Assembly: GCF_001677475.2 (NCBI RefSeq)
Contig: NZ_CP012498.1
DNA length: 64,000 nucleotides
Origin: Escherichia coli
GTDB taxonomy: Bacteria; Pseudomonadota; Gammaproteobacteria; Enterobacterales; Enterobacteriaceae
Direction: 5' to 3' (one strand)
This document shows, piece by piece, positions 46,001-49,000 of this stretch (positions within the stretch are counted from its first letter, which is position 1; the number at the start of each line of letters is the position of its first letter). The position numbers are program-made.

Positions 46001-49000
46001 AAAACTTTCTTTCAACATCGACATTACAGAGTAAAATTATAATTCTTGCTCATGGTACACCTGACTATATAGATTGCTCTCCTTTTGGACTAATGAGTCC
46101 TGTTCAGTTCCTTTTATTTCTTTATAATGAGCTTGGATTAAGATGTGCGGGTATTATATCATTTAAATCATGTTATCTTGGAAGTGGTTTTTTTTTAGAA
46201 AAATGTTGTGCTAATTGTGAGTTGCTTTTTAAAGACCTGAAAGTTGGGTGGTGGAAAGCCTATAAAGGAGTTGCAGCCACTCATTTTCTTTTTAATTCTT
46301 GTTCATTTAGCTCAGGGGAAGATGATTATATATTACGAAAAAAAACAGAGGGAGGTGAGAAACTAAGTGATGATTTCAGAGTTAAAATAATTAGAGGGAA
46401 TTATGATGTATCACCCTGTGATATTCGTGGAGCGCGATGGCGACGTTTAATCAATCAAAGATAAATATTGTGAATAGTCTTAAATCCTGGAAACCAAACT
46501 TTCTGATATTTTTCTAAATGGGGGCGTCTAATAGTTGTTTCCTTAAAGAGAACTCAGTCCGGATTGTGCGAGCTGAGCAATCGCCAAACCAAGCAAAACT
46601 ATTTACCAGGCAGAGCCATGCCGATCATAGCTCCTGTTTCCCGAAATGAACGACGTCAGATGCAAAAAACATTCATAAAACTTTGGATAAAAATCATGTT
46701 TGTCGACTTATGGCAATGCTTATGTTGCACCGGGGGTGCATATCAGTGATGTTACCTGAATGTTCTGTTGTTCTTACGGGTTCTGGTTTCGCTGTGATAA
46801 CGGAGAAAAAATGCGTGTCACGTTCGCGCAGGACTGCAGTGATCATGAGGTACTGCACGGTCACTACAGGCAGCTTCAACAGTGAAACAGTACAGGACGT
46901 CATGCCGGGAGCGGTGAAACGCCGCGTCGGCAATGAGCTTCCGGCGTCTCCAGTGGAGTGGCTGACGGATAATGGTTCATGCTACCGGGTTAATGAAACA
47001 CGCCAGTTCGCCTGGATGTTGGGAGTTGAACCGAAGAACACGGCGGTGCTGAGTCCGGAGAGTAACGGAATAGCAGAGAGCTTCGTGAAAACAATAAAGC
47101 GAGACTACATCAGTACCATGCCCAAACCAGACGGGTTAACGGCAGCAAAGAACCTTGTAGAGGCGTTCGGGCATGATAACGAATGGCATCCTCATAGTGC
47201 GCTGGATTATCGCTCACCACGGGAATATCTAGTAATGGGTTAAGTGATAACTGGTGTCTGGAAATATAGGGGAAAATCCTCTTTTAAAGCATCTGAAAGT
47301 AACATACAGACGAGCAAAAAGTGGACAACCACATAAACCATAAAAGCCGGGCAACGCTGTGCTGGCTGAAAGAAAAACCGAACTTCAGCGCCATTTACCA
47401 ACTGGTTTACTTGCGTACAACACGAAAACAGGTGGAACTTTGGCCTACATTTTGGCCCCCGGACTGATGAAAGCTGTCGTGAATTGCTGGCGCTACTTGC
47501 CCCTTTTACCATCGGTATGTTGACCACTGACGGATAGGGTCGTTGCACCAGAGAGTTACCGAAGGAGAAGCTCTGACTGGTGAGATTTTTACTCGGCGCA
47601 TTGAGTGCAACAATCTGGCCCTGAAACCCCGAATCAAACGTCTGGCCCGCAAAACTATCTGTTTTTCTCACTCTGTAGAACTTCATGAAAAAGTCATCGG
47701 TGCCGTTATCGAAAAATATATGTTCTACTAATTGGAGTTACCATCGTCAGGAAAAAGTGTAGCGGTATTGTAAGTATCCCGCATAATCGTGCCATTCATA
47801 TTTAGAGATCATCCGGCATAATCAATCTGCTAACGAAGGAGATCGCTATGCGTAAAGCCCGTTTTACTGAGCATCAGATCATCGCTGTGATTAAGTCAGT
47901 TGAAGCCGGACGAACCGTTAAAGATGTCTGCCGGGAGGCCGGTATCTCTGAAGCCACCTACTACAACTGGAAGTCCAGATACGGCGGCATGGAAGCTTCT
48001 GATATTAAAAAAATAAAGGATCTTGAGGACGAGAACCGCCGTCTCAAACAGATGTTTGCTGACCTGAGTCTGGAAAACCGGGCGCTGAAAGACGTTATCG
48101 AAAAAAGCTTTAAAACCAGCCTTTAAGCGTGAGCTGGTCACTCATCTAATAACGACATTCGGACTCAGTATCCGTCAGGCCTGCCGGAGTCTGAACCTGA
48201 GCAGAACGGTTTACCATTACCGCCCGGATACCACGCGTGATGAACCCGTTATTGCCGCCCTGCAGGCTGCGGCTGAGCGATACCCACGATACGGCTTTCC
48301 GAAGCTTTTCCAGATTCTGCGACGGCAAGGATACCCGTGGAATCACAAAAGGATCCATCGTATTTATTGTCTGCTGAAGCTGAATTTTCGCCGTAAAGGC
48401 AAACAACGGTTTCCGGTGCGTAATCCCTCGCCACTGGCTACGCCAGAAGCGCTGAACCAGAGCTGGTCTGTCGATTTTATGCATGATGCGCTGGCCTGTG
48501 GCCGTCGTTTTCGCACGTTCAATGTCGTTGATGACTTTAATCGTGAGGCGTTATCGATTGAAATCGATCTGAATCTGCCAGCTCTGCGAGTGGTCCGTGT
48601 ACTTGACAGGATCGCGGCAAAACGCGGTTATCCGCTCATGCTACGCATGGATAATGGTCCGGAATTTATCTCTCTGGCGCTGGCTGAATGGGCAGAGATA
48701 CACGCAGTAAAACTGGAGTTCATCCAGCCGGGTAAGCCGACGCAGAACGCTTTCATTGAGCGTTTTAACAGGACATACCGTACAGAAATACTCGATTTTT
48801 ATCTGTTCAGAACGCTGAATGAAGTACAGGAAATTACGGAGAAATGGTTATCAGAATATAACTATGAACGCCCGCATGAATCACTGAACAATATGACACC
48901 GGAGGAATACCGACTTCACCATTATTTGGCCGGGTTCTCAAAAAATGCATGGAACTAAAACGGGTCTATTTACAGTATTAGACACACCTATTTAGAATAC

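Follow-up and report, generated by a model that had tools for sequence, protein, structure and literature searches.

Insertion sequences (ISs) of the IS3 family are best introduced through their mechanistic model, IS911, which produces OrfA and, by frameshifting at A_AAA_AAG, an OrfAB fusion (the norm of the family), and which shows a DD(35)E catalytic triad, ends of the TG...CA type and short target duplications. The duplications of IS911, which is placed in another IS3 subgroup than the element described here, are 3 bp long. In the IS1447 group, IS3-family elements of Firmicutes that rely on +1 transcriptional slippage, orfB lies at +1 and the overlap contains a run of nine A's, at least seven being needed (PMC6211511). 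Closer relatives are IS1400 and unnamed elements, found in the Yersinia high-pathogenicity island and beside the colibactin island of Escherichia coli and Klebsiella. A further point of comparison is IsrN, an experimentally detected small RNA (sRNA) of 143 nt in Salmonella, which overlaps STM2765, a transposase gene, at its 3' end and whose overexpression raises STM2765 mRNA (PMC2330248). Here, a stretch of 64,000 nucleotides of E. coli DNA (contig NZ_CP012498.1; hereafter the window) was analysed, and an IS1400-related member of the IS3 family was delimited at positions 47769-48974. This element is structurally complete but probably transposase-deficient, that is, a frameshift-site mutant that would not be autonomously active at normal levels.

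The window element resembles IS1400 and its relatives in architecture and length (1206/1207 bp), in its TGTAAG.../...TTACA ends and 4-bp duplications, in the sequence of the orfA/orfB overlap, and in the presence of an antisense isrN segment, but it carries A6G instead of A7G at the overlap. Duplications of 4 bp and a length of about 1.1-1.4 kb characterise the IS407 group in ISfinder, and the element agrees with both. A relative in Yersinia enterocolitica, possibly IS1400 itself, shows only about 75% DNA identity and 82% protein identity to the window element, which by the usual ISfinder thresholds would probably carry a name other than that of this relative. In addition, a degraded copy at 95% identity was found in chromosomes of the B2 phylogroup. 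Searches with ISfinder have reported the IS beside the colibactin island as IS1400 (PMC10434048, PMC11707995), and the degraded B2 copy is probably this same IS. In the ISfinder classification, transposases of the IS407 group cluster with those of IS407, IS1222 and IS1400, and the published IS1400 assignments would lend indirect support to such a placement. Nothing in the locus represents a new kind of element, near-identical copies being already present in RefSeq as "IS3 family transposase". The main parts of the element are as follows:

47769-48974, plus strand: complete IS3-family element of 1206 bp, related to IS1400; BLAST alignments to other copies start and stop exactly at these bases.
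47769-47807, plus strand: left inverted repeat (TGTAAGTATCCCGCATAATCG...), from the alignment with the right repeat and its conservation across the family.
48936-48974, minus strand: right inverted repeat (reverse strand, TGTAAATAGACCCGTTTTAG...; last bases of the element, ...TTTACA), from the same alignment and family conservation.
47848-48126, plus strand: orfA, encoding a helix-turn-helix protein of 92 residues, with ATG at 47848 and stop codon at 48124-48126 (Pfam HTH_Tnp_1, E 2.6e-28).
48089-48958, plus strand: orfB frame, open over 48089-48955 with its stop codon at 48956-48958, encoding the DDE catalytic domain (Pfam rve, E 1e-19; rve_3, E 3.8e-27).
48101-48107, plus strand: slippery run shortened to A6G and read out of phase (GAA AAA AGC), by direct reading and comparison with A7G relatives.

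The bounds and the family assignment had been put forward in a first-pass annotation of the window, and both hold: BLAST edges coincide with the proposed bounds, and the NCBIfam profile transpos_IS3 matches the whole protein with 296.7 bits (cut-off, 160). The element has TG...CA ends (TGTAAG...TTTACA), and the inverted repeats regarded as plausible in that annotation proved to be real. They are about 39 bp long and imperfect, beginning TGTAAG... and TGTAAA..., and across 32 different insertion sites, in copies from many species, they remain conserved where homology abruptly ends. Both frames are uninterrupted. The catalytic triad was located at 48473-48475 (D), 48650-48652 (D) and 48758-48760 (E), with 35 residues from the second D to the E, as in DD(35)E. 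The orfB of the window copy has two private substitutions: N to K at 48622, a position conserved in relatives, and V to L at 48635. Stop codons or indels in orfB, which had been named beforehand as signs that would speak against an intact element, are absent from the body of the gene when it is compared with relatives, but a one-base indel is present in the orfA/orfB overlap.

This indel changes the relationship between the two frames. In the orfA frame the run is read GAA AAA AGC TTT AAA ACC AGC CTT TAA, and codons start at positions equal to 1 modulo 3 in orfA and 2 modulo 3 in orfB, so that orfB lies at +1 (equivalent to -2) relative to orfA. Thus, the loss of one A from the run has placed orfB at +1 and has left AAAAAAG at 48101-48107 out of the X_XXY_YYZ phase. 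A -1 slip in the window copy leads to AAG CTT TAA and stops after two codons. The C-terminus of OrfA is likewise altered, ending in ...VIEKSFKTSL, with a changed tail of six residues, in place of the ...VIEKKL of intact relatives. In the first-pass annotation the frameshift signal was called canonical, with orfB placed at -1 and a slippery heptamer near 48101-48107. The string AAAAAAG does occur there, but it is out of phase; the -1 assignment is wrong by codon positions, and the signal is not canonical in this copy, which has A6G where the family has A7G. The suggestion that the element may still be transpositionally active becomes doubtful, since the normal route to OrfAB is closed, reversion, leaky recoding and mobilisation in trans being the ways in which movement could still occur.

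The state of the run was then compared across the family. As identity bands of short-query BLAST were ambiguous for counting A6 and A7 (flanking mismatches dominate), they were replaced by inspection of copies and by a gapped pattern scan covering one genome per species, which gave 45 hits. The run was A7G in 38 of these, A6G in six and A8G in one. Among 35 full-length copies, all 30 with A7G have orfB at -1, and most of the full-length A7G copies are 1207 bp long, their orfA ending ...VIEKKL* (in-phase GAA AAA AAG CTT TAA) and the run being followed by 283 codons of orfB. Most of the other A6G hits are partial or broken, and one of them (L040) resides in a genome with three A7G copies. These data indicate that the ancestral state of the family is A7 with the -1 arrangement, and that the A6G, +1 state is a derived one-base loss. 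The deviation of the window copy from the -1 frame and slippery motif that characterise the IS3 family is a lesion in a family member, not evidence against common descent.

Furthermore, in two other lineages orthologous copies with identical flanks and no mismatches differ only in having A6 or A7 (L067/L071 and L068/L070), which identifies the run as an indel hot spot; judging from these pairs, the same contraction arose independently in two other lineages. The run can also expand: in Limnobaculum eriocheiris (L058, 2509-3715) it is A8G, and orfA and orfB are fused into an in-frame open reading frame (ORF) encoding 383 residues. This copy is a natural "constitutive fusion" allele of this IS family.

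According to the family norm, ribosomes translating orfA would slip by -1 at A_AAA_AAG and go on into orfB to yield the OrfAB transposase, which, as family membership suggests, would move the element by a copy-out/paste-in pathway. In the window copy, in which the A run has contracted from seven to six with orfB now at +1, a -1 slip would end after two codons. The predicted output is OrfA, a DNA-binding regulator, with little or no transposase, and a single added A would restore the canonical site. The frames together with the six-A run close the normal route to OrfAB. The sequence features, the target duplication with its empty site and the comparative pattern were observed directly, whereas the loss of transposase is inferred from these frames and from published related systems: an autonomous IS has its own route to a full-length transposase, whereas here the -1 slip runs into TAA and six A's lie below the published slippage threshold. 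Indeed, a six-A run in IS1447 gave no detectable frameshift product, seven being needed (PMC6211511). IS911 and IS1447 are thus instructive by contrast. The heptamer being out of phase, frameshifting in the manner of IS911 is precluded as the sequence stands. As to IS1447, the window overlap, with six A's, lacks the run of at least seven found in that type, and the +1 arrangement, which is the conserved state of the IS1447 group, is in the window copy a derived loss from a -1 family.

Evidence for stimulatory structures in the mRNA was also sought. The fold of the window sequence is unremarkable (z-score -0.67), 12 copies together give a weak consensus fold (-10.2 kcal/mol), and no frameshift stimulator is claimed. 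A 6-bp hairpin at 48115-48137 fits an antisense RNA better than the mRNA.

That the element arrived by transposition is directly observable at its edges, where the first-pass annotation had proposed a check for target-site duplications. The check gave a positive result, with GTAT on both sides of the element and a single GTAT at the empty site of relatives:

47765-47768, strand not applicable: left copy (GTAT) of the target-site duplication, from the empty site in NZ_CP012501.1.
48975-48978, strand not applicable: right copy (GTAT) of the target-site duplication, from the empty-site comparison.

The empty site in NZ_CP012501.1 reads ...GTAGCG GTAT TAGACAC..., with one GTAT. About 10 distinct related plasmids of roughly 170-240 kb match both flanks at about 99% and lack the 1.2 kb, and a search of 5,426 complete E. 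coli genomes and of 72,556 plasmids yielded no record with the filled site. Taken together, the GTAT duplication, the empty sites and the uniqueness of the filled site demonstrate that the insertion is real, was made by transposition, and is specific to this plasmid lineage, after its split from the sequenced relatives. A filled site unique to the window and empty in these plasmids also supports recent movement. Precise excision in all relatives was considered and rejected, given that about 10 distinct plasmids are empty, some of them from hosts labelled only Escherichia sp. The insertion point lies 22 bp past an old IS1 remnant. Across the family, a perfect 4-bp repeat flanks the element at 13 of the 32 distinct insertion sites, and a longer repeat at none.

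The window copy groups with copies at two other loci in a clade of E. coli plasmid elements that are 99% identical. One locus adjoins an IS256-family remnant in the same plasmid family as the window, and the other adjoins an EAL-domain gene on plasmids of swine enterotoxigenic E. coli (ETEC) and on other plasmids. The window copy and all eight other inspected members, full-length or truncated (L002, L003, L004, L016, L062-L065), carry A6G, and the full-length A6G copies of the 99% group form one clade. No A7G member of this clade was found, the best A7 matches to a 73-mer query all differing elsewhere. On the stem of the clade, 23 synonymous and three non-synonymous substitutions accompany the one-base loss in the A run, whereas within the clade there are three synonymous and 15 non-synonymous substitutions, plus one further 1-bp deletion (L003). 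The stem pattern would be that expected of a working element, and the within-clade pattern that expected without constraint.

Several observations weigh against regarding the element as a mutant devoid of normal activity. Any terminal IS branch would be expected to show an excess of non-synonymous changes such as that seen within the clade, which is thus no proof of function loss. A6G is found at all three loci of the clade, and at two of these the 4-bp duplications are clean (GTAT for the window copy and ATAC at the EAL-adjacent locus); hence, if there was a single ancestral contraction, the mutant moved at least twice later, which implies residual activity or help in trans. Moreover, RefSeq labels A6G copies (L002, L004, L062-L064) as "programmed frameshift", with a coding sequence (CDS) spanning 1111 nt. 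However, a -1 join would give 1112 nt, as in A7G copies, and cannot account for 1111 nt; the label thus hides a frameshift-site lesion. As to the order of events, the run being a hot spot, contraction before insertion and three contractions in place are rated as roughly comparable histories.

Movement of the clade could be reconciled with a closed frameshift site if the element was intact (A7G) when it inserted and its run contracted in place, independently of the other two loci, which is possible although we lean against it. The A7-to-A6 differences between orthologues with identical flanks in two unrelated lineages provide a precedent, and the presence of six A6 hits and one A8 among 45 suggests that run length changes on the time scale of a few point substitutions. 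Nevertheless, such a history needs three independent and identical contractions, each followed by fixation in every plasmid sampled for its locus: the eight inspected copies are A6G, the other listed hits are 1206 or 1205 bp long, and the 73-mer matches revealed no A7G member of the 99% clade.

It is unlikely, though conceivable, that a defective A6G element was moved in trans by the transposase of a related A7G element with the same ends in the same cell. Suitable helpers exist, as A7G relatives at 92-94% identity share the left terminal 29 bp and the right terminal 25-29 bp, are common on plasmids and chromosomes of E. coli, Salmonella, Klebsiella and Citrobacter, and also occur in a Belgian swine ETEC series in which the A6G clade is found on plasmids of other isolates. 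Against this stand the preference of IS3-family transposases for acting in cis, which amounts to about 200-fold for the IS911 enzyme (PMC5009743), and the lack of any second copy of the element within the 64-kb window. The flanks of the IS256-adjacent copy, as known from related plasmids, are absent from the window, which diverges from plasmid pCFSAN004181P below about position 18965; a donor copy, if present, lies outside the window.

More doubtful is the proposal that the A6G element remains autonomously active through non-canonical recoding into OrfAB. The routes envisaged are slippage of tRNA-Lys by +1 or -2 within the A6 run (AAA_AGC), stuttering of RNA polymerase with one A deleted or one or two added, and a +1 shift at a "shifty stop" at the end of orfA:

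48121-48127, plus strand: CTT TAA G at the orfA end, CUU_U plus stop codon, by direct reading; a +1 slip here would enter orfB (putative use).

The spread of the A6G clade over three loci, two with 4-bp duplications, and the unbroken orfB and DDE triad would fit such activity. According to the literature, CUU_U surpasses other +1 shift sites at stop codons in efficiency, homopolymer indels in the herpesvirus thymidine kinase gene show low-level compensatory frameshifting (PMC5009743), and ribosomes explore several slip sizes on AAAAAAG (PMC4344849). By contrast, direct reading revealed no prfB-type Shine-Dalgarno stimulator about 3 nt upstream of CUU_UAA_G, the upstream sequence being AAAACCAGC, and the string CTTTAAG is not conserved in relatives and hence was not selected as a +1 shift site. 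In addition, the six-A run of IS1447 yielded no slippage product, the clade is single-copy per replicon among the matches listed, the substitutions within it look unconstrained, and, as of a 2016 review, no IS was known to use +1 ribosomal frameshifting (PMC5009743). Finally, a homopolymer sequencing error in an element that is really canonical is very improbable: homopolymers are error-prone on several platforms and A6/A7 differences between single assemblies could be technical, but A6 is shared by all members of the 99% clade that were inspected, which trace back to independent laboratories and to different countries and years.

The frameshift-site mutant remains the preferred description of the element, and a second feature of the overlap region adds to it a possible regulatory dimension:

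48112-48254, minus strand: match over the full model (positions 1-143 of 143) to the Rfam family isrN (RF01396, "Hfq binding RNA"), antisense to the beginning of orfB; 155.5 bits (gathering score, 44), E 3.6e-36.

Each of the 16 family copies examined (L002, L004-L006, L010, L014, L022, L026, L032, L038, L044, L048, L057, L058, L060 and L070) has an isrN match at the equivalent position and on the equivalent strand. In the window, the 3' hairpin of the match, at 48114-48139, lies directly beside the slippery run. Over 18 distinct copies, 94.4% of pair cells agree with the Rfam structure, with double changes in four pairs, whereas the mirrored structure on the mRNA strand is kept in 75.3%; the comparison favours the minus strand, on which the structure was derived. 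No consensus promoter was found in the window upstream of the isrN 5' end on the minus strand. The segment lies with respect to orfA as IsrN of Salmonella Typhimurium does with respect to STM2765, whose 3' end it overlaps, but in strain LT2 the RNA was detected experimentally from its island locus, whereas in the window it is a predicted RNA. IsrN, the "island sRNA" of Salmonella, thus seems to represent the antisense strand of this widespread IS family.

It is conceivable, although improbable on present grounds, that the conserved Hfq-binding antisense sRNA is a working part of this IS family. The predicted duplex between IsrN and the transposase mRNA would start 5 nt downstream of the slippery heptamer, and the pairing could tune frameshifting or OrfAB synthesis, either as a stimulator resembling an antisense oligonucleotide or as a switch acting through RNase III or mRNA stability. 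If true, this would be a layer of IS3-family regulation not described so far. Survival of the A6G lineage by +1 ribosomal frameshifting at CUU_UAA is less likely than this, and would represent the first such case in an IS.

Putative transcription and translation signals were identified both within the element and at its right edge:

47795-47822, plus strand: promoter-like site TTCATA-16-CATAAT upstream of orfA (consensus scan, 9/12 matches; putative).
47836-47841, plus strand: ribosome-binding site AAGGAG upstream of orfA (direct reading; putative).
48969-48998, plus strand: outward hybrid promoter-like site, with -35 TTTACA formed by the last six IS bases, an 18-nt spacer and -10 TAGAAT in the flank (consensus scan, 10/12; putative).

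As in IS911, a junction promoter may be assembled from the two ends, in which the right-end TTTACA would act as -35, and a 4-bp bridge plus the first 13 bp of the left end would provide the 17 bp to CATAAT. The outward promoter-like site faces a hypothetical gene at 49083-49436, and the insertion may have created a hybrid promoter for this gene.

The host replicon is an E. coli virulence plasmid encoding a type VI secretion system (T6SS) and heat-stable enterotoxin. Over about 39 kb that encode the T6SS, effectors and enterotoxin, the window is collinear with pCFSAN004181P (L066). On the left side of the element, 46513-47742 consists of nested remnants of the IS630, IS2 and IS1 families:

46618-46736, plus strand: remnant of an IS630-family transposase (residues 1-40) with an internal frameshift (tblastn with the intact IS630-family transposase of a related plasmid; pseudogene in the RefSeq annotation of L001).
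46851-47231, plus strand: C-terminal remnant of IS2 OrfB (TnpB) (NCBIfam PRK09409 "IS2 transposase TnpB", E 1.5e-73, profile positions 159-285 of 301).
47281-47410, plus strand: residues 242-289 of that IS630-family transposase, again with a frameshift (tblastn; RefSeq annotation of L001).
47413-47742, plus strand: C-terminal remnant of IS1-family InsB, frameshifted, ending ...TTGGAGTTACC (NCBIfam transpos_IS1, E 7.3e-11, profile positions 130-199 of 199 over stitched frames, about 47445-47731; RefSeq).

Homology to the IS630 end begins near 46513, with a DNA match of 76%, and RefSeq places the IS2 pseudogene at about 46769-47269 (annotation of L001). The end of the IS1 remnant resembles the IS1 terminal repeat. 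Four pseudogenes in identical order are annotated by RefSeq in a 99%-identical stretch of plasmid pCFSAN004179G (L001). The adjoining IS630-like, IS2 and IS1-family fragments recorded in the first-pass annotation are hence confirmed by tblastn, NCBIfam profiles and RefSeq annotation. Although these plasmids are otherwise 99% identical, their IS content varies, as seen when window 34074-43515 and 43514-47769 are set against L066: pCFSAN004181P has insertions missing from the window, namely an IS630-family element at the point matching window position 43515, approximately, and an IS3-family pseudogene within an IS110 remnant, matching about 34075. To the right of the element, an ORF at 51637-51870 on the minus strand encodes a heat-stable enterotoxin precursor of STa/STp type (...NTFYCCELCCNPACAGCS), whose last residue is S, whereas the usual STp presumably ends in Y. 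An ST-I enterotoxin is annotated at the matching place in related plasmids.

For the plasmid itself, this is a routine insertion sequence in a replicon rich in IS debris and little changes, although the insertion may affect its neighbour through the outward -35 element beside the hypothetical gene. The link to IsrN is a small but useful clarification of the origin of a Salmonella sRNA. For the IS family, the slippery run emerges as a mutational weak point that recurs in independent lineages, A6 being expected to switch the transposase off and A8 fusing the frames. Since the "programmed frameshift" label is attached to A6G copies, counts of "intact" IS3 transposases based on this label will overestimate active elements, and activity calls need the run length to be checked in phase.

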